64,000 nucleotides of DNA from Candidatus Limnocylindria bacterium (lineage in GTDB: Bacteria; Chloroflexota; Limnocylindria; QHBO01): the NCBI GenBank assembly GCA_035701185.1, contig DASSNX010000169.1:1138-65137 (forward strand), in the 5' to 3' direction. Both the position numbers and the translations under genes were made by a program. Below are positions 10,134 through 21,026 of the stretch, one piece after another. Under the pieces are notes generated by a model. It worked only from the letters and a program-made list of their open reading frames with translations, was not told the DNA's origin and ran no database searches. The first letter of the stretch is position 1, and each line of letters opens with the position of its first letter.

Positions 10134-11180
10134 TCAGGCGCTGACCTTCAGGCGCTGACCTTCGCGGTGCCGGTCGCCGGCTGGACGCTGATCGGGCTTC
10201 GAACCCCGGCATTCCACCTGCAGCCGCAGCCGGTAGAGGACGTTCCATTCGTCGATGTTCAGGTTCGCGCGGTCGATCCTGGCCTGGACCTCGTCGAGGC
10301 GGCGGCGGAGCGCAGCCGGACTGCCGCCGTGCTCGCCGGCTTGCATGATCGCGTCCTCCAGCCGCTGGCTGTCCTCGCTCCAGGTGAGGTGCGCGCCGCG
10401 GAACGGGAGCTCACGCTGGAGCGCCGAACGGGCAACGTGCACCTTCGGCATCGGCCCCAGCACCGCGACGTTGGTGGCGTAGGCGTAGAGCTCGAGCCCG
10501 TCGGCGGTCAGGTACATCGGCTCGCCGCGCACCACGGCGCCCAGGAGGTGACGCACGGCGAAGCCGACGGTCCGCATCGGCCAGCTCTCGATGCCCTGGG
10601 CCTCCCGTACCTGAAGCTGGTCGACGCCGATGGTCCGCAGCGCACCCGCCACCGCCTCTGTCAGCGCCTCGTCATCGGTGCCGGGCTTCATGGACAGCGC
10701 GACCTGGACGAGCGTGCGCTTGTGGCGGATGCGCTCGATCAGCACGAACGGCGTCAGGATCACCATCTGCAGCACCGCGATCCCGAGCGAGGCGGTGGCG
10801 GGATACGACACCGGCACCATCCGGACCCACTGCCCGACGCTGCGCTCCTCCTGGAACTCGACCCAGATCGTGAGCGCGGCGATGACCGGCGGCGTCAGCA
10901 GCAGGCCGGCCGCGATGCCCAGGACCACCAGCGGCGTCACGTGGAAGTTGTGCGGGATGACGCCGAACGCATCCAGCGCGGCGCCGAGGAGCAGCGGCAC
11001 GGCGAAGCCGGCCAGCAGGATGACCCACGCGGCGGCGAGCAGGCTGCTGACCGCCAGCACGCGGCCCTGCTTGCCCGGCACCTGGCCGAAGTACAGGGCA
11101 GTGGCCCAGCCGAGCGCGAACGAGGCCGATCGGCTGACGGCCTGCCAGGCGAGCAACAGCACGAAGGGCAGGAATGGCAT
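10134..11180 (-). CDS. Hypothetical integral membrane protein with a C-terminal cytoplasmic domain
   Basis: About 4 N-terminal TM helices followed by a soluble domain; high GC3. Confidence 0.55.
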   Translation of the reverse strand: MPFLPFVLLLAWQAVSRSASFALGWATALYFGQVPGKQGRVLAVSSLLAAAWVILLAGFAVPLLLGAALDAFGVIPHNFHVTPLVVLGIAAGLLLTPPVIAALTIWVEFQEERSVGQWVRMVPVSYPATASLGIAVLQMVILTPFVLIERIRHKRTLVQVALSMKPGTDDEALTEAVAGALRTIGVDQLQVREAQGIESWPMRTVGFAVRHLLGAVVRGEPMYLTADGLELYAYATNVAVLGPMPKVHVARSALQRELPFRGAHLTWSEDSQRLEDAIMQAGEHGGSPAALRRRLDEVQARIDRANLNIDEWNVLYRLRLQVECRGSKPDQRPAGDRHREGQRLKVSA

Positions 11181-11246: not shown

Positions 11247-11930
11247 TCAGTCGAGGTGGACGGTGACCCGGATGACGCCGGCGCTGGTATCGGCGTCCGA
11301 GATGGCGGCCCAGGCCTCCGGCGAGAGGTCGGCGACCTTTTGGTCAGCCGTGCCCCACAGGCAGCCGCAGTAGTCGGCCACCGGCAGGGTGGCGCAGCGG
11401 TCGGCGCAGATCGTCACGCTGCGCGCCGCGGGTGGCGCGTCGTAGTGCCCGCCGAGCGCGCCTGGCAGTGCCACCACCGCCTCACCGGTCCACCCGGCCG
11501 AGCAGCAGTACCAGGTTGCCAGGCCACTGACGCTGTTGCCCGACACCGGCGTGGCCGGCGGCGGTGGAGGGGGTGCAGTTGCCACGGCCGGTGCCGGCTC
11601 GGGCGGGACTGGCGTTGGAAGCGGCGTCGCCGCGCTGACGAGCATCGGCTGCATCTGGACCGATGCCGGGGTCGGCAGCGCGCGCGCTGCATGGGTGAGC
11701 GACTCGGCGCCGATGGGTCGCTGCTGGTCGAGGAGCGTCAGGGCTGCCAGCCGTTCGCGGCCGTCGGACCCTCGGTCGAGGGCGCTGACCGCCGCACCGG
11801 CGTCGAGCAGCGAGTCGCGCGTGTCGCCACGGGGAAGCGGCGCCGACTCGACGGCGAGCGGCGCGAGGAGGGCAATGCCCAGGGCGCTGACGAGGGTCAG
11901 TGCGGCGACGCGCCGCAGCAGATCCGGCAA
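11247..11930 (-). CDS. Secreted RlpA-like double-psi beta-barrel (DPBB) domain protein
   Basis: C-terminal GLATWY...G...AAH..LP.G..V.V RlpA/DPBB-like block; Pro-rich linker; probable TTG start at 11930 giving the signal peptide MPDLLRRVAALTLVSALGIALLAPLAVESA (the ORF-track ATG at 12017 adds low-complexity N-terminus). Confidence 0.55.
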   Translation of the reverse strand: MPDLLRRVAALTLVSALGIALLAPLAVESAPLPRGDTRDSLLDAGAAVSALDRGSDGRERLAALTLLDQQRPIGAESLTHAARALPTPASVQMQPMLVSAATPLPTPVPPEPAPAVATAPPPPPPATPVSGNSVSGLATWYCCSAGWTGEAVVALPGALGGHYDAPPAARSVTICADRCATLPVADYCGCLWGTADQKVADLSPEAWAAISDADTSAGVIRVTVHLD

Positions 11931-12084
11931 TAGGTTCCCCTGGCGTTGAGCGGGGCACGCGCCAAAGAGCGCACCATGGAATCGGTCCCCGCAGGACCGG
12001 GGCCACCCTACCATCACGCCCTGGGGCTGTCGACTCGCACCAGCCGATCTGCACTACCCTCCACCCAACCAGCAGGGAGCAGCC

Positions 12085-12933
12085 ATGCCGCGCAGGAAGA
12101 AGGAGCCGGAGCGCCGACGGGGCGCGGTGGTGGTCCGGGGCAAGGCTGATTCGCGGCGGCGCACGGAGGACCAGGAGCTGCTGCGCTCGGCGCCGGCGGC
12201 GGCCTTTGAGTTCCGCGAGACCGACACCTGGCGGACGCTTCGGATCATGGGCGAGTTCGTGGAGGGCTTCGACGCCCTGGCCGAGATCGGCCCCGCGGTC
12301 ACCGTCTTCGGGTCGGCCCGGGTCGGCCGGCGCAACCGCTACTACGGCGCCGCGCGACGCGTGGCCGCCGCCCTCGCCAAGAACGGCTTCGCGATCATCA
12401 CCGGCGGCGGTCCGGGGATCATGGAGGCCGCCAACCGGGGAGCCAAGGAGGGCGGCAGCCTCTCCATCGGCTGCAACATCGAGCTCCCGTTCGAGCAGGG
12501 GCTGAACGAGTACGTCGACCTGGGCATGGAGTTCCGCTACTTCTTCGTGCGCAAGACGATGTTCGTCAAGTACGCGGAGGGCTTCGTCATCTTCCCCGGG
12601 GGGTTCGGCACCCTGGACGAGCTGTTCGAATCACTCACCCTCATCCAGACCGGCAAGGTCGAGCATTTCCCGATCGTGCTCTACGGCAGGGAGTACTGGA
12701 ACGGGCTGCTCAAGTGGATCCGCGATCGGCCGCTGTACGAGGAGAAGATCAGCCCGGAGGACCTGGACCTGCTGACCGTCACGGATGACGTCGATACCGC
12801 CTGCAACGCGATCCTCGAGTCGCGCAAGAACCGCGAGGCGCGCGAAGCCCGGCGCGCGGACGAAAAGGCAAGCGTCCAGGCCACCGCGGAGGCCCGTCAG
12901 GAGGCAGCAGGCGGGTCTCGAAATGCGGATTGA
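12085..12933 (+). CDS. LOG family protein (cytokinin riboside 5'-monophosphate phosphoribohydrolase-like, TIGR00730)
   Basis: VFGSARV...GGGPGIMEA...PGGFGTLDE motifs; AGGGAG SD. Confidence 0.85.
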   Translation: MPRRKKEPERRRGAVVVRGKADSRRRTEDQELLRSAPAAAFEFRETDTWRTLRIMGEFVEGFDALAEIGPAVTVFGSARVGRRNRYYGAARRVAAALAKNGFAIITGGGPGIMEAANRGAKEGGSLSIGCNIELPFEQGLNEYVDLGMEFRYFFVRKTMFVKYAEGFVIFPGGFGTLDELFESLTLIQTGKVEHFPIVLYGREYWNGLLKWIRDRPLYEEKISPEDLDLLTVTDDVDTACNAILESRKNREAREARRADEKASVQATAEARQEAAGGSRNAD

Positions 12934-12976
12934 ATCGGCGTGCAGGAATCCGATACTTTGCTAACCACCTGCTGCT

Positions 12977-13007
12977 AGGATGCCCGCGTCGGCGACGCGC
13001 CGACATC
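12977..13007 (+). terminator. GC-rich hairpin downstream of the LOG gene (possible terminator without a U-tract)
   Basis: GGATG-cccgc-GTCGGCG-acg-CGCCGAC-ATCC inverted repeat. Confidence 0.3.
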
Positions 13008-13377
13008 CGCTCAGAGCAAACCCGTCGCGAGGCGGGGACGCAACGCCACGGACCTCTTCCGGGCAATCGGGGGTAGGCCGCCGGGCTGCCGGATCTTCGA
13101 TCCAGGCGATGGGACGGCCACGTTGCCCACACCGACCATCGGTTTGAGTTGACCCTCCCAGTCGCATGACGCGCACCCATTGGTGCTGGGCGCCAATGGG
13201 CACAAAAGGCGATCGGACGCGCCGCTAGGAGGGAGGTGGCCCGAACAACTGTCCGAGCACGTCACTTCCTGCAGCACGTCCGATCGTGCGACGCGTGACC
13301 GTACTTGGGAGTCCGTCCACGACGTCGATCGCATCGTACTGCAGGCTCCTGTTGCCCATTCCATCGGAGCTTGAGCA

Positions 13378-13905
13378 GTGCCACGCACCCGGCTGTGCTC
13401 GCGACCACGCACCCTGTGGTCGCGTCTTCTGACCGTCCTGCTCCTCGGAGCAGGGTTCGCGGTCCTGGCCCTTGCGTTCGCCGTGCGGCTCGCGGGATTG
13501 CATTTCCAGACCGTCCTGACGAATTCGATGCGGCCGACCTTCTCGGCCGGCGACGTCGTCGTGACGCGACCCGTGAGCATCGGCTCCGTCCAGGTGGGCG
13601 ATGTCATCGCGTTCCAGCCGCCCAACGGCTCGGAACCGGTCATTCACCGGGTCACGTCGGAGAAGGACGGCGTGATCAGGACGCGGGGTGACGCAAACCC
13701 GGTCAACGACCCATGGAAGGTCAGGCTGGAGGGCTCGACGGCGTATCGCCTGATCGCGGTCCTGCCTGGCCTCGGCTGGTTGGCGACCCTGCAGCGTCCC
13801 CTGCTCCTGCTGGCCGCGCTCCTCGCGATGCTCGCCATCGCGCTCGAGCTGCGAAACGTGGTGCAAGCCCGAACCAAGCGGGCCGTGCCCGAGCCACGAC
13901 CCTGA
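13378..13905 (+). CDS. Signal peptidase I, SipW/Sec11 type (S26B)
   Basis: N-terminal TM, catalytic Ser (TNSMRPTFSAGD), His (VIHRV) and RGDAN motifs typical of archaeal/eukaryal-type SPase (SipW-like); C-terminal TM anchor; GTG start with GGAG. Confidence 0.8.
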   Translation: MPRTRLCSRPRTLWSRLLTVLLLGAGFAVLALAFAVRLAGLHFQTVLTNSMRPTFSAGDVVVTRPVSIGSVQVGDVIAFQPPNGSEPVIHRVTSEKDGVIRTRGDANPVNDPWKVRLEGSTAYRLIAVLPGLGWLATLQRPLLLLAALLAMLAIALELRNVVQARTKRAVPEPRP

Positions 13906-13960
13906 CCGGACGGTCCTGCCGGGCCGATCGGGGCGTTCCAATTCAGGGAGGACTCATTTC

Positions 13961-15148
13961 GTGACGCTACGCAAGACCGCCGCTGCGCTGGCAGTGGCTG
14001 GCCTGATCGTCGGACTCATCGGGTCCGGGATCGGCGCCAGCTTCGTGTCGACGCTGACGGCCACCGAAAACATCCAGGTCGGCGGATTCGCCTGCCGGAT
14101 CATCGAGCCGAGTGACGGCACGGTTGCCGGTGACGGGAAGTCGGTAACCTATGACGCGCCGACCATCACCAGCTCGGCGGCCGGCAATGCCCCGTTCTCG
14201 TTCACCGTCGAGAACAACGGCGACATCGACCAGCTGCTGACGGTCTCGAAGACCGGCCAGAGCGGAAACCTGTCGGGGAAGTTCTCTGACATGCCGGCCT
14301 CGCCGTCACCCGTCACGCTGCCGGCCGGCGGCTCCGTGGAGATCACCACCGGCATCCAGTGGACCGAGCTCGACAACGACGATCTGGGCCGGTTCGGCTC
14401 CATGGTCTGGACGATCAACTGCGGCGAGGCCAGTGTCGGCTTCGACAACGCCCCGAACGTGCTGCCAGGAAACCTGCCGAGCTACGGCCCCGAGGCCTAC
14501 TCGTTCGACGAGTGGGGCGGCCAGGTCGCGCTGGCGGGGACTGCCCGGGATCTTTCGGCGGCCACCGTCACCCTGAGCAGCTGGGCCTGCGAGAGCGGCA
14601 CTTGGAACGGGAACGACTGCGCGACCACCCCGGGCGCGACCTTCAACGTGCCGATCACGTTCAACGTCTACAACGTCGGCCCCAGCAACGCAGTCGGCTC
14701 GCTCATCACGAGCAAGACCCAGACGTTCGCGGTTCCGTTCCGGCCCAGCGCCGACGCGGTCAACTGCACCGGACCCGACGCCGGGAAGTGGTTCAACGGC
14801 ACGACCTGCTTCAACGGCAAGGCCGTGAACGTCACGTTCAGCTTCGCCGGCGAGACGTTGCCGGACAACGTGATCTTCGGGATCACCTTCAACACGAGCA
14901 ACTACGGCTATGCGCCGCTCGGGGCTGGCACACACCCGACCGACTCGCTCAACATCGCGACCTACCCCGGCAATGGCGTGTCCACGCCGGCCGAGGTCGG
15001 GAGCTGGGTGCCGGACGACGTGTCCGCGTACGTGGCGAACGGTGCGGCGAACACGCCGTTCGCGGGGCCGGTCACGAACCTCCCGACCGGCCCGGGCGAC
15101 AACTTCGTCGGCTACATGCCGGCGGTCCAGATCTTCACGGCCCCGTAG
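13961..15148 (+). CDS. Secreted protein with TasA/camelysin-like SipW-cognate N-terminal signal
   Basis: Signal/TM helix then GASFVSTLTATENIQVGGF, resembling the SipW-cognate consensus (A.F.D.E...N.F.AG) of TasA/CalY; flanked by two sipW-type genes; Gly/Thr/Asn-rich beta-type composition; GTG start with AGGGAGG SD. Confidence 0.65.
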   Translation: MTLRKTAAALAVAGLIVGLIGSGIGASFVSTLTATENIQVGGFACRIIEPSDGTVAGDGKSVTYDAPTITSSAAGNAPFSFTVENNGDIDQLLTVSKTGQSGNLSGKFSDMPASPSPVTLPAGGSVEITTGIQWTELDNDDLGRFGSMVWTINCGEASVGFDNAPNVLPGNLPSYGPEAYSFDEWGGQVALAGTARDLSAATVTLSSWACESGTWNGNDCATTPGATFNVPITFNVYNVGPSNAVGSLITSKTQTFAVPFRPSADAVNCTGPDAGKWFNGTTCFNGKAVNVTFSFAGETLPDNVIFGITFNTSNYGYAPLGAGTHPTDSLNIATYPGNGVSTPAEVGSWVPDDVSAYVANGAANTPFAGPVTNLPTGPGDNFVGYMPAVQIFTAP

Positions 15149-15171
15149 CGGCGGAGGACTGGTAACCCGAA

Positions 15172-16392
15172 ATGGCCGGCAGGCAGGCGCTGATCTCCCG
15201 CCACGGTGGCGGGCGCCTGCCTGCTGCGACGCAGCTGATTCCCGGACCCGGCCATGCGCTGCATGGTCGGGTCCCCCACCTCTCGCCGAGGGCGCTGCTC
15301 GGTGCGGCGCTCGAAGCCCTGCTGGTGGCGGCCATCGCGCTGGCGGCCTTCATCGCGCTCGGCCTGGTCGGCAATCCCTGGTACCGCGTCATCGGCATCG
15401 ACGGTGGGTCCATGCAGCCGACCCTGTCTCAGGGCGACCTGATCGTGGTCCGTCCCACACCCTCGATCATCGAGCCCGGCATGATCCTGGTCATGACGGT
15501 GGGCGACGAGACCGTCACGCACCGCGTCGTCGCCGTTGGCCCCAATGGAACCTTCACGACCCGCGGCGACGCGAACGCGGCAGATGACCACTGGGATGCG
15601 CGGGACGTCCGCGTCCGGGGGCTCTACGTCGCGACCATCCCCTGGCTGGGACGGGTCCTGCCGGTCCCCGACACGTCCGAAGCCCTGTTCACCGACGAGG
15701 TGACCGCGACGATGCAGCTCACGGTCGGTCCGTTCACGACGCCGAATCCGCCGCCCACGCCAGCCGAGTGTGGCGACATGAAGTTCGCCGAGGTCCTGGT
15801 CGGCACGTCCGGCGACGATGTATTCCACGCCGCCAACGGTGGTGCCCTCATCTTCGGCCTCGGCGGCAACGACACGATTTACGGCGGGAACGCCAAGGAC
15901 TGCCTCGTCGGGGGCGACGGCAACGACCTGCTGGTCGGCGGCAACGGCAAGGACGTCCTCCTCGGCGAGGACGGCAACGATGTCCTGGTCGGCGGTGCCG
16001 ACAACGACGTGGCCGAGGGCGGCAACGGCAAGGACCGCCTGGACGGCGGCGACGGGACCGATGCGTGCATCGGCACCAGGAAGGACACGTACGTCGACTG
16101 CGAGTCGGTCAGCAACGGCTCCAGCAGCCCGACTACCGATGGACCCCGCCGGTTGAGTACGCCTGAACCGACACCGGTCAGCCAGCCGCCGGATCCCGCG
16201 GGTGCGACGCCGTCATCGGCCGAGACACCGTCACCGGATCCAACGCCCAGCCCATCGGCTGAGCCGACGGCCGCACCCGAGACGCCAACGCCGACGCCGG
16301 ACCCCACGCCGACCGTGCCCGGAGGGCAGGCGCAAAGAGGGTGGGAGATCGGTCACGAGTGGCGGGCCCGACCGGATTCGAACCGGCGCTAG
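15172..16392 (+). CDS. Signal peptidase I (SipW/S26B type) fused to RTX calcium-binding repeats and a Pro/Thr-rich tail
   Basis: GGSMQPTLSQGDLIVV (Ser), VTHRVV (His) and TTRGDAN motifs, then about 8 GGxGxDxxx nonapeptide repeats (GGNDTIYGGNAKDCLVGGDGNDLLVGGNGKDVLLGEDGNDVLVGGADNDVAEGGNGKDRLDGGDGTD) and a PT-rich linker. Confidence 0.7.
   Translation: MAGRQALISRHGGGRLPAATQLIPGPGHALHGRVPHLSPRALLGAALEALLVAAIALAAFIALGLVGNPWYRVIGIDGGSMQPTLSQGDLIVVRPTPSIIEPGMILVMTVGDETVTHRVVAVGPNGTFTTRGDANAADDHWDARDVRVRGLYVATIPWLGRVLPVPDTSEALFTDEVTATMQLTVGPFTTPNPPPTPAECGDMKFAEVLVGTSGDDVFHAANGGALIFGLGGNDTIYGGNAKDCLVGGDGNDLLVGGNGKDVLLGEDGNDVLVGGADNDVAEGGNGKDRLDGGDGTDACIGTRKDTYVDCESVSNGSSSPTTDGPRRLSTPEPTPVSQPPDPAGATPSSAETPSPDPTPSPSAEPTAAPETPTPTPDPTPTVPGGQAQRGWEIGHEWRARPDSNRR
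16360..16388. repeat. attL: 29-bp direct repeat identical to the 3' end of tRNA-Asp
   Basis: tggcgggcccgaccggattcgaaccggcg at 16360-16388 is identical to 20950-20978. Confidence 0.75.
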
Positions 16393-16585
16393 CAGCACCC
16401 ACGATCCGTATTCCGATCATCCGCAGGTCAGAGTGGCTGCTAGCTGCCGGTTGTCGGCCTAATAATCAGGAAGCGCTGCCACGCACGGTCGGTTCGTCCA
16501 GGAAGGCTGGCGAGCGATAATCCGCTCATCTGGTGACGCGGCTTCTAGTCACGACAGGCTAGATGTCACAATGAGAACATACGTT

Positions 16586-17308
16586 CTATGCTAGATCGCG
16601 GATGGCCGTTGTACCTTCGCGCCGCCGAGATATCTGATTTTCGGGCCAATCGGCTGCTGCGATACGAAGTTCGGGATGTCCGCGATCGTACCGAGAAGCG
16701 GCTCTATCTCTATGCCCACCGAGAGACAGCGAGGCATGTGCAGTTGGGTCTCCGAAGCCTGGGCTGCGATCCGCTGACGATGACAGATGAGCAGCGTCGG
16801 GACTGGACCCACCGGTACAGCCTCGACGGTCCCCTCGATGAGGAATCGGAGTCTTTCTTGGAGTTGATGAAGGAGGTCCTGACCTTGAATGTCCCGTCCG
16901 AAATCGACGCGGCGCTCGCGCTGGACTTCCATTAGGATCCCGAGTCGCATGAAGACCGGATGCAGTGGAAGAACACCGAGGTCTGACCCACTCAATGGGT
17001 GTAGGCAGCTTCGAAGGGTTCTGCCAGTAACACTCCTGGGCCAGCGAGTAGCCCAGTTCCTCAACGGCCCGGATCACAAACTTCCACTGCACCAGCGTCC
17101 GGGCAGGCTCTCCGCGGCGGTAGGCGGGGCCAATATCGATGACGAACGACCCGGTGTCCGCCAGCTTCGGCTTCAGCTCACGTGCGAAGCTCAGCAGCCA
17201 ATCGAGGTACTCATCTTCGACCGTGTTGCCGTATGCCTTCGGCCGGAGCAGAGCGAATGGGGGTGACGTGATGGCCAGGTCCACAGACTGATTGGCCAGT
17301 GTCGGCAA
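16586..17308 (-). pseudogene. DNA N6-adenine/N4-cytosine methyltransferase remnant (beta-class, motif IV SPPF), apparently frameshifted or truncated
   Basis: N-terminal ~108 aa (VDLAITSPPF...IIW-like IEWV) look like a DNA MTase; the rest of the ORF is low-complexity and no motif I (FxGxG) is present in any frame. Confidence 0.45.
16588..16935 (+). CDS. Hypothetical protein (island cargo)
   Basis: 115-aa ORF with protein-like composition in the low-GC region; antisense to the degenerate part of the methyltransferase ORF. Confidence 0.35.
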   Translation: MLDRGWPLYLRAAEISDFRANRLLRYEVRDVRDRTEKRLYLYAHRETARHVQLGLRSLGCDPLTMTDEQRRDWTHRYSLDGPLDEESESFLELMKEVLTLNVPSEIDAALALDFH

Positions 17309-17559
17309 CCATTCCAGGCTACACCTGAAACTGCGGTGCCGAGCTGAGTCTGGTAGGCCGACCGAATCGTCACGGATGCACTCTAGCGGTCCAGCGGTTT
17401 CCTGTGCCCGACCTCATCGCCAGCCGGTGCGGCCATCTTCTCATCCCCGCAGAGAACGACATGCAGTTCTCGGGGCCTAATGCTTGATTTCCGTCGTGGA
17501 GTTAGCCGATACTGCATCCAATCGGCTGCCGACTCGGATGCCGAGCAGGGAGGGATGCT

Positions 17560-19698
17560 GTGAATGGGCCCTGGGTGCGCCTAGCCGCGGCCACGTTCGC
17601 CGTTGCCATCGTCGGAAATGCCAGCGCGGCGCCAATGTCGTCGGATGCCGAAGAGGCTGCGAGGGCGCTCGCGCTCGACCGAGCGGCGCAGACCCTCGAC
17701 GTTGCCGCAGATGAGGTTACGAGCACATCAGAGGGTGTCATTCAGCCGTGGGGGGTTGATCGATTCTTCGTCGGGACTTACGAGACCGCTAGCGGGAATA
17801 CAACCGCCGTTTGGGTCGACTTGGCGACTTTGGCGGTTTACGACCGTAACGAATTCTGGGCGGCCACCGAAGAAGCGCGCAAAAATTTGGGCAAATACAC
17901 CCCGGATGTTCGGGCGACGCTCGATAACCTTGCCGACGGCGACAAAGCCACAGTCGCCATCACCTACTTGTCGGATTGGCGGCAGGCTGCGCTCGCGTCT
18001 TTTCGGCTTGCCGCGCCTAACGTAAAGCTTTCTGAAGACGGCAGACCAGATACCGGGGACGACAAGTTAAACCAGGAGATCGCGCAGGAGTTGCGAGACC
18101 TCCGCAAAGCCGCACTTGTGCTGGACCGCGAGCCAATCCTCGGACTGCTGAAAGAGCAGGCTTTGACGGTTGAATATGCCGCCGAATTGGTTCCGATGAT
18201 CTGGATCACAGGCAGCAAATCCCAAATCGAAGCGGTGACTGCGTCGCCTCTGGTGGTGAATACGCTTGGGTCGTACAAGACCGAATTGGCTTCGTGGAGT
18301 GAGGCTTATGACAACATCCAAGCAGGTGACGCCTATTCATCGAACTTCAGGGGCCAGGGTACGACTGTCGCTGTAGTCGAATACAACAACGTCAAATGGG
18401 ACATTCCAACCTTGAGCAGCATCCCGTCGAGCGACTACGACAATTTCGTACAAGGTAATGTACCTCCCCATGTAGATGGCCATCCAACCTGGGTGATGGC
18501 AGCGATTGCAAGCCGCACGTCAGGCCGCAGAGGCGTGGCGCCGAATGCACACTTTCTTAGTTCGTCCACAGTCGACGGGCATACGGATCCCAACTGTGAG
18601 ACGTGTGACTTCAACATAATCGCCGCGGTAGAGAAGACCTTCACAAACCCACAGAAACCAGACCCTGATGTCATCAACCTAAGTATCGTTGCTGACTCGG
18701 GACAGAACGGACATACCGGCGATGGTGCCGAATCGATGAAGGTTTATCTCGATAACCTGGTCGCAACCGAAAACATCCATGTTGCCGCGGCCGGCGGTGA
18801 CGACTTCACGGGCTTCAGGCAGTGCAGCAATGCAAATTCGCCCAAGCGCGTTCAGGAACCCGGCGGTGCTTGGAATGTCGTGGCGGCCGGCCTCACGAAA
18901 ATCAACGGATCTGGATGGGCGGACGATCAGATCTTCTTCGAAGCGCCGAGCGACGGCGATCCGGCTTTCTGTTGGGGCAACAACCCAGGCAATCCTGGGG
19001 ACCCGGTTACCCGTGTAAAGCCTGAGCTCGCAGCGCCGGGACAAGGCGTGACGTTCCCAGACTCCTACCTCTTCGGATATGAATCTGGCACGAGTATCAC
19101 TTCACCTCAAATCGCAGGCACTATGTCCGTCCTAATCGGCGAAGACCCGACAAACCTTCGATCGTACCCGGAGGTAGTGCGCGCAGTAATCGTCGCCTCG
19201 TCCGACGTTCATCAGACCGAGCCCTCCCACAATGAGGACGATTACGAGGGGTGGGGAACTCTGAGTGTTAAGTGGGCCACGGAGCTCGTCAAAAGGAATG
19301 CTGGCCGCGGAGACTTTGGACGGCGCAATTTTGCAGCAACGGGACAGGCTCCTCACTATGGTGCGCCGGGAAGCCTGTACCAGAACCTCAGGGCGGATTA
19401 CAACCGTGCTCGGTTCGTGATCTCGTGGAATAGTCACGGGATTTACGACCAGGGAGGCTGTGATGACACATCGACTTGTTCTGACGAGCGAATGACAGAT
19501 TTCGATATCCACGTAACTAATGCGGCGACCGGCGCCTTTGTGAAGGACTGCCTGAAGCCCGCGAGTAATTACGAGGTCTGTAGTTGGGCCTCAACCCCGG
19601 GGACCACGTATCACATCGTGATGGACCCGGTTGAGTGGAATCGATTGCAGCCCGCTGAGACTGTCGGGTGGGCATTCATGAGTCACAACGACCAATGA
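17560..19698 (+). CDS. Secreted S8 family (subtilisin-like) serine peptidase with a long N-terminal pro-region
   Basis: Signal peptide; His motif VDGHPTWVMAAIAS; Ser motif GTSITSPQIAGT; Asp-motif region reads VAVVEYNN (Glu where the catalytic Asp usually sits); GTG start with AGGGAGG SD. Confidence 0.8.
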   Translation: MNGPWVRLAAATFAVAIVGNASAAPMSSDAEEAARALALDRAAQTLDVAADEVTSTSEGVIQPWGVDRFFVGTYETASGNTTAVWVDLATLAVYDRNEFWAATEEARKNLGKYTPDVRATLDNLADGDKATVAITYLSDWRQAALASFRLAAPNVKLSEDGRPDTGDDKLNQEIAQELRDLRKAALVLDREPILGLLKEQALTVEYAAELVPMIWITGSKSQIEAVTASPLVVNTLGSYKTELASWSEAYDNIQAGDAYSSNFRGQGTTVAVVEYNNVKWDIPTLSSIPSSDYDNFVQGNVPPHVDGHPTWVMAAIASRTSGRRGVAPNAHFLSSSTVDGHTDPNCETCDFNIIAAVEKTFTNPQKPDPDVINLSIVADSGQNGHTGDGAESMKVYLDNLVATENIHVAAAGGDDFTGFRQCSNANSPKRVQEPGGAWNVVAAGLTKINGSGWADDQIFFEAPSDGDPAFCWGNNPGNPGDPVTRVKPELAAPGQGVTFPDSYLFGYESGTSITSPQIAGTMSVLIGEDPTNLRSYPEVVRAVIVASSDVHQTEPSHNEDDYEGWGTLSVKWATELVKRNAGRGDFGRRNFAATGQAPHYGAPGSLYQNLRADYNRARFVISWNSHGIYDQGGCDDTSTCSDERMTDFDIHVTNAATGAFVKDCLKPASNYEVCSWASTPGTTYHIVMDPVEWNRLQPAETVGWAFMSHNDQ

Positions 19699-20210
19699 TC
19701 CGTTTGGTCGGAATCTTCCTGGTCCTGGGTCTGCTATGCGTTGCTCCCGCAGGTACTTACGCAACCGTGGGTGGCCAGTTGTCGGTAAAAATCAGCTTCC
19801 GGGGACCGTGCGAGGCCCAGGGATACCTTCAGGTCGACAACAAGTCTGGGGACTTTGTCGTCCTCGACAAGGCGTTCGAGTGGTCAGCAACACAGCCTAT
19901 CCGCCAAGTTATTGGCGCAACTCCGATTGCCGACCCAGGTGACAGGCTACTGCTCCGACTGTTTGCCGCTGATCACTCCACAGTTCTTTTCAAGTCGGAT
20001 TCGTTCAGTCACAGCGGCGATGAGAGTGGGTACTTTTCCAACTTCACGGCATTGCTGGATTGTTCGACCACTCCGTACCAGGCAGTTGTCAGCGATACGG
20101 CGATGTCCGACCCTGGTCGTGATTGGCTAACGCCGGTGGGAATTGCCCTGTCGGTTGCGGCCGTGGGGATGGCCCTGCTACTTCTGCCGCTGAAGAAGCG
20201 AGCCGATTAG
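19695..20210 (+). CDS. Hypothetical secreted/membrane-anchored protein coupled (ATGA) to the S8 peptidase gene
   Basis: N-terminal signal peptide MIRLVGIFLVLGLLCVAPAGTYA and a C-terminal TM helix followed by KKRAD. Confidence 0.55.
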   Translation: MIRLVGIFLVLGLLCVAPAGTYATVGGQLSVKISFRGPCEAQGYLQVDNKSGDFVVLDKAFEWSATQPIRQVIGATPIADPGDRLLLRLFAADHSTVLFKSDSFSHSGDESGYFSNFTALLDCSTTPYQAVVSDTAMSDPGRDWLTPVGIALSVAAVGMALLLLPLKKRAD

Positions 20211-20370
20211 GTCCTTCCAACCCAACCCTTGAGAGCGGCTTTACCAGCGCTTCGGCAGACGGCTCCGTACGCTGCGGAAGAAATCGGTCGCAGGCGGGGT
20301 CGACCAACGCCAGCGATGACCGTTGTGAAGGCAGCGTGTTTCTAGGCGCGCCAGCAGGGGACTCGTGTCG

Positions 20371-20772
20371 TCAGGAAGGTGATTGAGACTTCAGAATCTG
20401 AAATACCGTCATCGGGTACCAGCGGCCACCCTTCGCGGTCGGAATGCCTTCCGTGTTGAACATGTCCGCGATGGCGGCGTATGTGAGCCCCTTCATGCGC
20501 ATGAAGTTGATGCGCTTTCGAATTTCCAGTGGGTAGCTGCGCGGTGCCCCAAAGCGGTGCCCGGCCGCCATCTTGGCTCTCATCGCATCTCTGGTCCGTT
20601 GCGCTATCAGGTTGCGTTCAAATTCGGCGAACACGGACAGGACACCAGCCATCATCTGGCCCTGGGGCGTGCTCATGTCGAGGCCTAGATCAAGGATCGC
20701 CAACGACCAGCGCTCTCGTTGGGCATCACGCACGATCCGGGCGAAGTCGAATTGCGAACGGGATAGCCTCAT
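20371..20772 (-). pseudogene. Serine recombinase (resolvase/invertase) fragment lacking the N-terminal catalytic Ser region
   Basis: ORF begins at the LDRLSRS-like motif and continues through the resolvase dimerisation region and C-terminal HTH (GLTYAAIADMFN); there is a stop codon and no catalytic-domain sequence upstream. Confidence 0.6.
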
Positions 20773-20949
20773 GGTCGCTCGCGAGTGAGAAAGCGAAAGC
20801 TGATCTGCTCCACGCGATCATCGGACGGGTGCTGGTACAAGGGTCGGAATTCGTAGGCGTGGAACTCACGCCGCATGCCGAGGCGCACGGATTAGCGCTC
20901 TGCCTACCTGAGCACGTCCGTTCGGAAAGGAGCCGCTCTGGTGCTGCTA

Positions 20950-20978
20950 TGGCGGGCCCGACCGGATTCGAACCGGCG
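20950..20978. repeat. attR: 29-bp direct repeat (3' end of the intact tRNA-Asp)
   Basis: Identical to 16360-16388. Confidence 0.75.
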
Positions 20979-21026
20979 ATCTCCAGCGTGACAGGCTGGC
21001 ATGTTGGGCCGCTACACCACGGGCCC
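20950..21026 (-). tRNA. tRNA-Asp (anticodon GTC)
   Basis: Cloverleaf GGGCCCG-TG-D arm-CCAGC CTGTCAC GCTGG-T arm (GGTTCGAATCC)-CGGGCCC-G-CCA; anticodon loop CUGUCAC. Confidence 0.9.

Follow-up and report, generated by a model that had tools for sequence, protein, structure and literature searches.

Genes of the peptidase unit and their conservation

In a 64,000-nucleotide stretch of contig DASSNX010000169.1, derived from a soil Chloroflexota (Candidatus Limnocylindria bacterium) and termed the window in the following, three consecutive open reading frames (ORFs) were found on the plus strand. They encode a first predicted signal peptidase (SP1, positions 13378-13905, 175 amino acids), a middle protein (MID, 13961-15148, 395 amino acids) and a second predicted signal peptidase (SP2, 15172-16392, 406 amino acids), and are separated by gaps of 55 bp (SP1-MID) and 23 bp (MID-SP2). 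An earlier inspection of the window without database searches, hereafter the sequence-only reading, had given these ORFs, their strand and their spacing exactly. Since the third-position GC content of the three ORFs (0.85-0.92) is similar to that of the neighbouring genes, they can be regarded as native genes. Due to the common strand, the short gaps and the lack of a convincing terminator, SP1, MID and SP2 probably form a single transcription unit together with a promoter and a riboswitch leader. A scan for intrinsic terminators yielded a single chance-level candidate located inside the SP1 gene, and none in the leader. As a promoter, a candidate extended -10 element (TGCTAGGAT, 12973-12981, plus strand) was read from the sequence alone and is put forward with low confidence. 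It is kept as TGCTAGCAT in the related locus L009 (alignment A4); a scan for consensus sigma-70 promoters gave no match.

SP1 (13378-13905, plus strand) is predicted to be a signal peptidase I of the SipW/Sec11 type with membrane segments at the N- and the C-terminus. It scored 71.5 bits against the model of archaeal/eukaryal-type signal peptidases (TIGR02228, cutoff 51.85), matched PF10502 as well and kept the Ser (NSMRP), His (IHRV) and Asp (GDANPVND) boxes in an alignment with human SEC11A and SEC11C. SP2 remained just below the TIGR02228 cutoff (50.8 bits), its L001 orthologue reached 66.1 bits, and PF00717 matched SP2 with 27.1 bits. The catalytic boxes of SP2 (GSMQP, THRV and GDANAADD) are conserved in 35 family members. 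Over 69 amino acids of the catalytic core the two peptidases are 42% identical. Taken together, the scores, the SEC11 alignment and the boxes bear out the sequence-only reading, in which both enzymes had been assigned to the S26B (SipW/Sec11) type. The equivalog model of Bacillus SipW (NF046067, cutoff 190 bits) was matched with only 38.4 (SP1) and 35.4 bits (SP2). Judged by these profiles, the proteins belong to the SipW enzyme type (predicted Ser-His-Asp) and are not SipW orthologues.

The gene neighbourhood was compared in nine species-level loci possessing a full-length MID homologue. In eight of them, a SipW-type peptidase gene lies directly upstream of the MID homologue, and the outer flanks are unrelated. 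The SP1-MID pair is thus a conserved, portable unit. An SP2-type gene follows in L009, L010, L007, L013 and L085; elsewhere its place is taken by MID paralogues. The triad of peptidase, MID N-domain protein and SP2-type gene is also present in L086, L087 and L088, and its C-terminal payloads and passengers vary among L009, L010, L085 and these three loci. In L086 (426-2215) and L088 (674-2536), the module lies just downstream of genes for a HisKA_3 histidine kinase and a GerE/LuxR-type response regulator and has no riboswitch. This gene order suggests that the module is subject to another regulatory input there.

Leader region and riboswitch

The leader upstream of SP1 comprises 444 bp. The sequence-only reading had described it as a 445-bp low-GC stretch. 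Such a leader is indeed present, but its GC content is only modestly lowered (0.646, compared to 0.697 in the window), and a riboswitch inside it had been missed. The leader contains an aptamer of the cyclic diguanosine monophosphate (c-di-GMP)-I class (GEMM-I), situated at 13004-13095 on the plus strand (Rfam match 13005-13093). With 51.6 bits it passed the gathering score of RF01051 (35 bits), and it reached 49 bits (E-value 1e-9) with the variant model RF03167. Recognizable parts of the aptamer are P1 (AUCCG/CGGAU), the junction CAGAGCAAACC of the form CAGRGCAAACC, P1b with a GCGA tetraloop, the GGGACGCAA segment and a long P2 hairpin. Homologous aptamers were detected upstream of SP1 in L009 (59.4 bits, passing the RF03167 threshold of 59), L085 (56.8 bits) and L084 (55.2 bits), and L002 is likewise listed with a riboswitch at this place. 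With a purpose-built model (R1), only these copies were confirmed in 0.95 Mb of related loci; weak R1 matches in L075, L069, L082, L008 and L059 were rejected because Rfam did not confirm them. At position 13015 (plus strand), the equivalent of G20 in Vc2 numbering according to the cmscan alignment, the window carries an A, while L084, L085 and L009 have a G. In Vc2, this unpaired base, located immediately 5' to the G21-C46 pair, recognizes one of the guanines of c-di-GMP. The equivalents of A47 and C92, which also contact the ligand, are present as read from alignments.

The aptamer is followed by a structured remainder of the 5' leader (13096-13377, plus strand), which is a candidate expression platform by its conservation, its minimum free energy (MFE) z-score and its consensus fold. 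These approximately 280 nt are conserved as strongly as the aptamer and include an invariant block of 40 nt at about 13308-13350. Across four loci the mean identity of the leader is 84%, which exceeds the conservation of the proteins (MID of L009 is 69% identical). A small ORF in the leader was considered and rejected: indels between relatives are not multiples of three, indicating that the leader is non-coding. For the leader, a strong secondary structure is predicted (MFE z-score -2.75). In a predicted hairpin at about 13340-13378, GCUCC pairs with the GGAG Shine-Dalgarno sequence at 13366-13369, and three mutually complementary segments of the GCGAUCG/CGAUCGC type within 13096-13377 suggest alternative helices. 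Covariation across the four leader/aptamer copies amounted to merely two compensatory pairs, as the copies are too alike.

The middle protein and the passenger of SP2

MID can be divided into four parts, all on the plus strand. Residues 1-26 (13961-14038) form a predicted signal peptide of the SipW-cognate type, as indicated by family conservation and by TIGR04088 matches in relatives. K5, G21, G23 and A26 are invariant or nearly so in the family, and by comparison with related signal peptides cleavage is predicted after A26 (…GIGA). Residues 27-44 (14039-14092) make up a conserved mature N-terminal strand, SFVSTLTATENIQVGGFA, which conservation and model confidence mark as a candidate donor strand. 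The third part (residues 45-163, 14093-14449) is an immunoglobulin (Ig)-like/PapD-like beta-sandwich with the invariant residues Cys45 and Cys154, and the fourth (residues 165-395, 14453-15148) is a jelly-roll/lectin-like payload domain for which no Pfam model exists. The family consensus around the cleavage site (marked by a slash here and below) reads GxGVGA/xFTDxVTAxENIxVGTFxC, in which I38, V40, G41, F43 and C45 are invariant. TIGR04088, the model of SipW-cognate signals, matched 19 of 61 full-length MID homologues (best E-value 1.8e-4) and 34 of 105 N-domain relatives (best E-value 2.3e-7), and TIGR04089 matched three of the latter. PF12389 (TasA/camelysin) was matched by 18 of the 105 relatives, two of them above the gathering score (31.7 and 23.4 versus 22.5 bits).

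In AlphaFold models, the mean predicted local distance difference test (pLDDT) score was 83.8 for full-length MID and 85.4 for the N-domain. Residues 1-41 were modelled as unstructured, residues 45-163 as the Ig-like sandwich and residues 165-395 as a confident beta-rich domain. The conserved N-terminal strand had pLDDT values of 51-64 when the N-domain was modelled by itself and stayed below 50 in the model of the full protein. In fold searches, the body of MID came out as an Ig-like sandwich similar to pilus chaperones and pilins and, to a weak degree, to the TasA fibre. Judged from sequence profiles and these models, MID appears to share the export and N-terminal-strand module of TasA-like proteins, the fold resemblance of its body being generic.

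An exhaustive phmmer search revealed 241 clusters with the MID N-domain, many of them stand-alone proteins of about 155 amino acids consisting of signal peptide, strand and Ig domain. A metagenome scan for N-domain relatives with the single protein as query found none. Full-length MID homologues were found only in metagenome-assembled genomes of Chloroflexota, labelled Candidatus Limnocylindrales or 'uncultured Chloroflexia'. The jelly-roll domain, for which NCBIfam has no model either (compared in L014-L083), has R196, R261 and P262 as invariant and W208, S263, C210 and C220 as nearly invariant residues. Its wide distribution takes in Actinomycetota, Acidobacteriota (Pyrinomonadaceae), Dormibacterota and others. 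In many cases it is joined to beta-helix, PKD or Calx-beta domains, and no SipW gene is located nearby.

The sequence-only reading had pictured two peptidases around one substrate. The architecture of SP2 suggests another arrangement, namely SP1, a first substrate (MID), and SP2 fused to a second substrate. Residues 1-168 (15172-15675; TIGR02228 and PF00717) comprise a membrane anchor (about residues 42-66) and a SipW-type catalytic domain, and lack a C-terminal membrane segment. At the position of this segment in SP1, SP2 continues with PVPDTSEA/LFTDEVTATMQLTVGPF. Residues 169-188 (15676-15735) thereby include a predicted cleavage site and a TapA-like strand, an internal SipW-cognate site which resembles the mature N-terminus of the MID family (F at +2, D at +4, VGxF at +14 to +17). 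It is followed by a beta-roll passenger of RTX calcium-binding nonapeptide repeats (residues 204-309, 15781-16098), in which GGxGxD nonapeptides occur in three stretches (PF00353, 56.1 bits, cutoff 23, E-value 3.3e-15). The tail (16099-16392), delimited by sequence and a repeat check, consists of a Cys-containing linker and a Pro/Thr-rich stalk. All of these segments are on the plus strand.

A hidden Markov model (HMM) derived from residues 26-46 of the MID family matched the SP2 family at the internal site, nine proteins scoring 9.1-20.6 compared to 7.5 for the best of 12,200 shuffled decoys. Immediately before this motif, S-x-A (Ser at -3, Ala at -1) was present in all 35 peptidase-bearing members of the SP2 family, in agreement with the -3/-1 rule for signal peptidase I. 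Outside SP2, the passenger is encoded on its own as well. In L005 (7284-7955), directly downstream of a MID homologue, a stand-alone gene encodes 223 amino acids with the same RTX domain behind an ordinary signal peptide, …IVTAEA/LFADSVDSQMSVTVGPW (…AEA/LFAD). The same domain stands alone with a signal peptide in P0168, P0184, P0176, P0161, P0197 and P0152, and in further stand-alone passengers the signal ends in …G(T/S)xGA before YFTD. In P0183, a complete SipW including the C-terminal membrane segment is joined to a complete preprotein, and in other members of the SP2 family the same motif precedes PKD or other Ig-like passengers. On the grounds of the motif HMM, the invariant S-x-A, the stand-alone RTX orthologue and the junction in P0183, SP2 appears to be a peptidase fused to its own substrate. 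A cut at S-x-A would set free an RTX protein with L172 as its first residue. No type I secretion genes were found near SP2, unlike the situation in classical RTX toxins, and export of the passenger would proceed via Sec and SipW.

SP2 is directly followed by a low-GC island of 4.56 kb (16389-20949, GC 0.585 compared to about 0.70), which is flanked by perfect 29-nt direct repeats (16360-16388 and 20950-20978). The repeats copy the 3' end of a tRNA-Asp gene (20950-21026, minus strand). The cargo of the island includes two truncated genes on the minus strand, one for an N6/N4 DNA methylase (16586-17308) and one for a serine recombinase (20371-20772), as well as an S8-like protease ORF. By its sequence the island seems to be integrated and decayed, and it does not belong to the module, since in L085 the SP2 gene is followed by a small membrane ORF (134 amino acids, absent from the window) and then by the tRNA gene, without an island. 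The last 11 codons of SP2 (16360-16392) lie within the tRNA-Asp-derived repeat, with the stop codon one base past the repeat; excision of the island would lengthen the SP2 ORF by merely three codons. The tail of SP2 (…GGQAQRGWEIGHEWRARPDSNRR) is probably non-native. Within the island, an ORF at 17560-19698 (plus strand, 712 amino acids) showed a weak match to the subtilisin/mycosin-type model TIGR03921 (E-value 1.3e-9, far below the cutoff) and none to Pfam, and an ORF at 19668-20210 (180 amino acids) has a signal-like N-terminus and a C-terminal membrane segment. The upstream neighbour (12085-12933, plus strand) belongs to the LOG/TIGR00730 family (cytokinin riboside 5'-monophosphate phosphoribohydrolase-like). 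Its synteny with L084 does not extend to L009, and it is thus not part of the module. Two further ORFs on the minus strand, 11247-12017 and 10134-11180, have a high third-position GC content, fall into no confident family and are both syntenic in L084. The former has a linker rich in Pro and Ala and, at the C-terminus, a weak DPBB similarity (lytic transglycosylase-like), the latter encodes a multi-pass membrane protein.

Proposed function, alternatives and relation to known systems

According to the model proposed here, the leader would sense a cyclic dinucleotide, i.e. c-di-GMP in the three relatives and possibly c-di-GMP and/or 3',3'-cyclic GMP-AMP (3',3'-cGAMP) in the window copy. Ligand binding would change expression of the operon, likely by remodelling of the long leader, which ends in the hairpin covering the ribosome-binding site. 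While the aptamer itself is present, the nature of the ligand and the direction of control are inferred. SP1 would remove the signal peptide of MID after …GIGA, exposing the strand SFVSTLTATENIQVGGF ahead of the Ig-like sandwich and the lectin-like jelly-roll; family membership and the conserved adjacency of the two genes argue for this SP1-dependent processing. In SP2, the C-terminal membrane segment is replaced by the passenger, and anchor and catalytic domain would stand in for a signal peptide. Processing at S-x-A, either in cis or by SP1, would yield an RTX calcium-binding protein beginning with LFTDEVTATMQLTVGPF. It is conceivable that this protein nucleates or anchors a donor-strand polymerization of MID, giving rise to a calcium-stabilized surface fibre or adhesin layer which shows the lectin-like domain. 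This last step follows, by analogy, the logic of TasA and TapA, whose N-termini read AFNDI and AFHDI, and of which TapA donates a strand and thereby starts TasA filaments (PMC10151520). The donor-strand analogy is suggested by the conserved N-terminal strand, which is unstructured in the models and has a copy on the partner SP2. Further arguments for it are the similarity of the Ig-like body to pilus chaperones and pilins and the two relatives that exceed the gathering score of PF12389.

The components of the model are not equally well founded. Riboswitch-controlled, SipW-dependent export of two cognate proteins is probable, and a function in matrix or surface would be in keeping with the c-di-GMP riboswitch of the leader. 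The complete model, a riboswitch-controlled module for SipW-dependent export and assembly, is considered the more plausible view of the locus. Fibre formation by MID, for which the argument is one of analogy, is a tentative proposal. Still more doubtful is its furthest extension, in which anchor and catalytic domain of SP2 are a self-removing leader, the RTX strand nucleates chaperone-free, lectin-tipped calcium fibres, the riboswitch switches the whole kit on and the G20A exchange may retune it to cGAMP.

Several results weigh against the model. The riboswitch is confined to one subclade, as a search in more distant loci found none. No intrinsic terminator was found in the leader. In the 64-kb window, a regular-expression search for GGDEF/EAL genes found no GGDEF motif and no c-di-GMP enzymes. 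MID of the window matched no model of Pfam and NCBIfam, including Peptidase_M73/TasA, nor TIGR04088 even at E-values up to 10, and the Asp is missing from its FxD motif (SFVSTL). The PF12389 matches of its relatives span only positions of about 4-51 (in one case to 76) of the 196 in the profile, which correspond to the signal and the N-terminal strand. A profile of the N-domain found nothing among PDB sequences, including TasA, CalY and AbpA, and fold searches returned generic Ig-like matches without singling out TasA. The SP2 motif of the window alone scored 6.3, which is inside the range of the decoys, so that only the family-level signal is significant. Since a TasA-specific fold match was not obtained, polymerization of MID rests on analogy. 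With regard to the sequence-only reading, this means that its SipW-cognate N-terminus of MID can be maintained for the family but not for the window protein itself, while its designation of MID as TasA/camelysin-like is not supported, because no PF12389/Peptidase_M73 or NF046066 match covers the globular domain. It had also proposed to look for a TasA-like jelly-roll; the models do contain a lectin-like jelly-roll next to the Ig-like sandwich, but the resemblance to TasA is weak and the fold searches are unspecific. Its suggestion of a fibre or surface module agrees with the conserved gene pair, the SipW-cognate signal of the family and the riboswitch as far as the surface is concerned, whereas the fibre has no TasA match of MID behind it and would be a conclusion by analogy.

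The lack of a TasA-family match and the generic Ig-like fold are also what one would expect if the module served export only. In that case, the peptidases and the xFxD…VGxF segment would be needed for recognition and processing alone, MID would be a lectin-like adhesin or enzyme, monomeric and either secreted or wall-associated, the RTX protein an independent calcium-binding exoprotein, and a donor-strand fibre would not exist. The wide distribution of the C-terminal domain of MID without a nearby SipW gene, which points to an autonomous binding module, is in line with this explanation, as is the occurrence of TIGR04088-class signals on proteins of unknown, possibly non-fibrous function. On the other hand, conservation in MID reaches about 18 residues beyond the cleavage site (I38, V40, G41, F43), far past the needs of signal peptidase I, and the partner protein bears a second copy of this strand, a situation known from TasA and TapA. 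Moreover, many family members are bare subunits of about 155 amino acids, which is typical of polymerizing subunits. We therefore regard a pure export function as rather unlikely. A further explanation, housekeeping signal peptidases that lie beside unrelated genes by chance, might be derived from public records, in which both enzymes are annotated simply as 'signal peptidase I', and from the fact that no LepB-type peptidase was seen in the window. It was ruled out by the recurrence of the triad and the adjacency in eight of nine loci with differing flanks, and thus the case which the sequence-only reading had named as its own refutation is contradicted by the neighbourhood comparison it had asked for. 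The SipW-cognate signal of the substrate family, the riboswitch leader dedicated to the unit and the fusion of one peptidase to a cognate substrate leave this explanation with hardly any probability.

Two further alternatives concern individual steps. SP2 might remain uncleaved, being an active membrane-anchored peptidase with a permanent RTX ectodomain on a Pro/Thr stalk. The ectodomain might then position SP2 in the wall or tether the fibre, and the motif would be a structural or docking element. Catalytic boxes kept throughout the family and the lack of a membrane segment between catalytic domain and motif are compatible with such a protein, but Ser -3 and Ala -1 without exception in 35 members fit the rule for signal peptidase I, and the passenger is encoded by a gene of its own with a signal ending in …AEA/LFAD in L005, and elsewhere. 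A permanently fused SP2 is for these reasons unlikely. The second alternative is that the leader of the window answers to 3',3'-cGAMP instead of c-di-GMP, or that its aptamer is decaying. The A at 13015 is a signature of GEMM-Ib aptamers with cGAMP or dual specificity, and the RF03167 score is below that of the relatives (49 compared to 55-59 bits). Binding of cGAMP or of both ligands is described for G20A mutants as well as for naturally occurring A20 aptamers (PMC6140456), and from the base alone the window copy would be predicted to have cGAMP or dual specificity. However, the G is retained in three close relatives, the G20A mutant of Vc2 still binds c-di-GMP with 53 nM (PMC6140456), the remainder of aptamer and leader is intact, and a single substitution could be a strain polymorphism or a sequencing error. 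A complete change of ligand or a decay of the aptamer is thus improbable to about the same degree as an uncleaved SP2.

Returning to the model of a riboswitch-controlled export and assembly module, the closest known counterparts are two biofilm-fibre operons, tapA-sipW-tasA of Bacillus subtilis and sipW-tasA-calY of B. cereus. There, too, the substrates have a dedicated Sec11/SipW-type peptidase encoded next to them, both mature substrates start with (A/S/L)F-x-D (AFNDI and AFHDI in Bacillus; xFTDxV and LFTDEV here), and one substrate is Ig-like, the second being an accessory unable to accept a strand. What separates the locus studied here from the Bacillus operon is its host, a member of the Chloroflexota (Limnocylindria), the body of MID (an Ig-like sandwich of about 115 amino acids plus a lectin-like jelly-roll, without a Peptidase_M73 match, in place of TasA), the accessory (an RTX beta-roll fused to a second peptidase instead of the Ig domain of TapA), the control by a riboswitch instead of SinR/RemA-type regulators, and the failure of SP1 and SP2 in the Bacillus SipW equivalog model (38 and 35 versus 190 bits). 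The SipW protein of B. subtilis was reportedly described by Terra et al. in 2012 as bifunctional, with a second role for its C-terminal tail. SP2 is similar in having a second function in its C-terminal part, but this part is an extracellular passenger of about 235 amino acids behind a cleavage-type motif and not a short regulatory tail.

The TIGR04088/TIGR04089 proteins of Firmicutes and Actinobacteria likewise possess a signal peptide followed by F-x-D…G-T-(L/F) and are encoded beside a SipW-like peptidase. MID differs from them by falling below detection with both models and by its own Ig-like domain with variable C-terminal payloads. Archaeal AbpA bundling pili, the cannulae protein CanA and AbpX form chaperone-free polymers by N-terminal donor strands, some of them calcium-dependent, which is reminiscent of the RTX partner, the polymer being assumed by analogy in our case. 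No sequence or specific fold match to these proteins was obtained, AbpA is processed by a generic peptidase (PMC9245690), and calcium would here be bound by a separate RTX protein. The riboswitch resembles Vc2 of Vibrio cholerae and the GEMM-Ib elements of Geobacter in P1, the CAGRGCAAACC junction, the GNRA-capped P1b, the GACGCAA segment and P2 as well as in its location in the leader of surface or matrix genes. Its P2 is unusually long for a GEMM-I riboswitch, 280 nt of conserved leader follow the aptamer, and as in A20 GEMM-Ib variants the window copy has A20 where close relatives have G20. The statement of the sequence-only reading that the arrangement matches no known operon is not tenable, as the logic of tapA-sipW-tasA seems to be re-implemented here and PF12389 homologues have already been reported in Chloroflexota (PMC9245690). 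A SipW-type system outside the Firmicutes is, for the latter reason, not new in itself. Within the limits of the searches made, four features are new, namely a SipW-type operon governed by a riboswitch, the fusion of peptidase and substrate, the N-domain family with swappable payloads and the RTX accessory, and in the searchable library no paper tying a c-di-GMP riboswitch to a sipW-type operon was found.

Limnocylindria are abundant Chloroflexota of soil and freshwater without a cultured representative, and to our knowledge there is no information on the way in which their surfaces or biofilms are formed. The locus provides a compact, testable module which would tie second-messenger sensing to SipW-dependent export in these bacteria. 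The natural pair of G20 and A20 in near-identical leaders is a handy test of riboswitch ligand specificity. The rule established by TasA and TapA, a shared N-terminal strand on a major and an accessory protein, would be extended to a family with different bodies, comprising 241 clusters and lacking a Pfam model. Finally, the joining of a signal peptidase to a cognate substrate, in which the -3/-1 site is kept invariant, is an unreported architecture, which could show how SipW-type enzymes recognize their special substrates.

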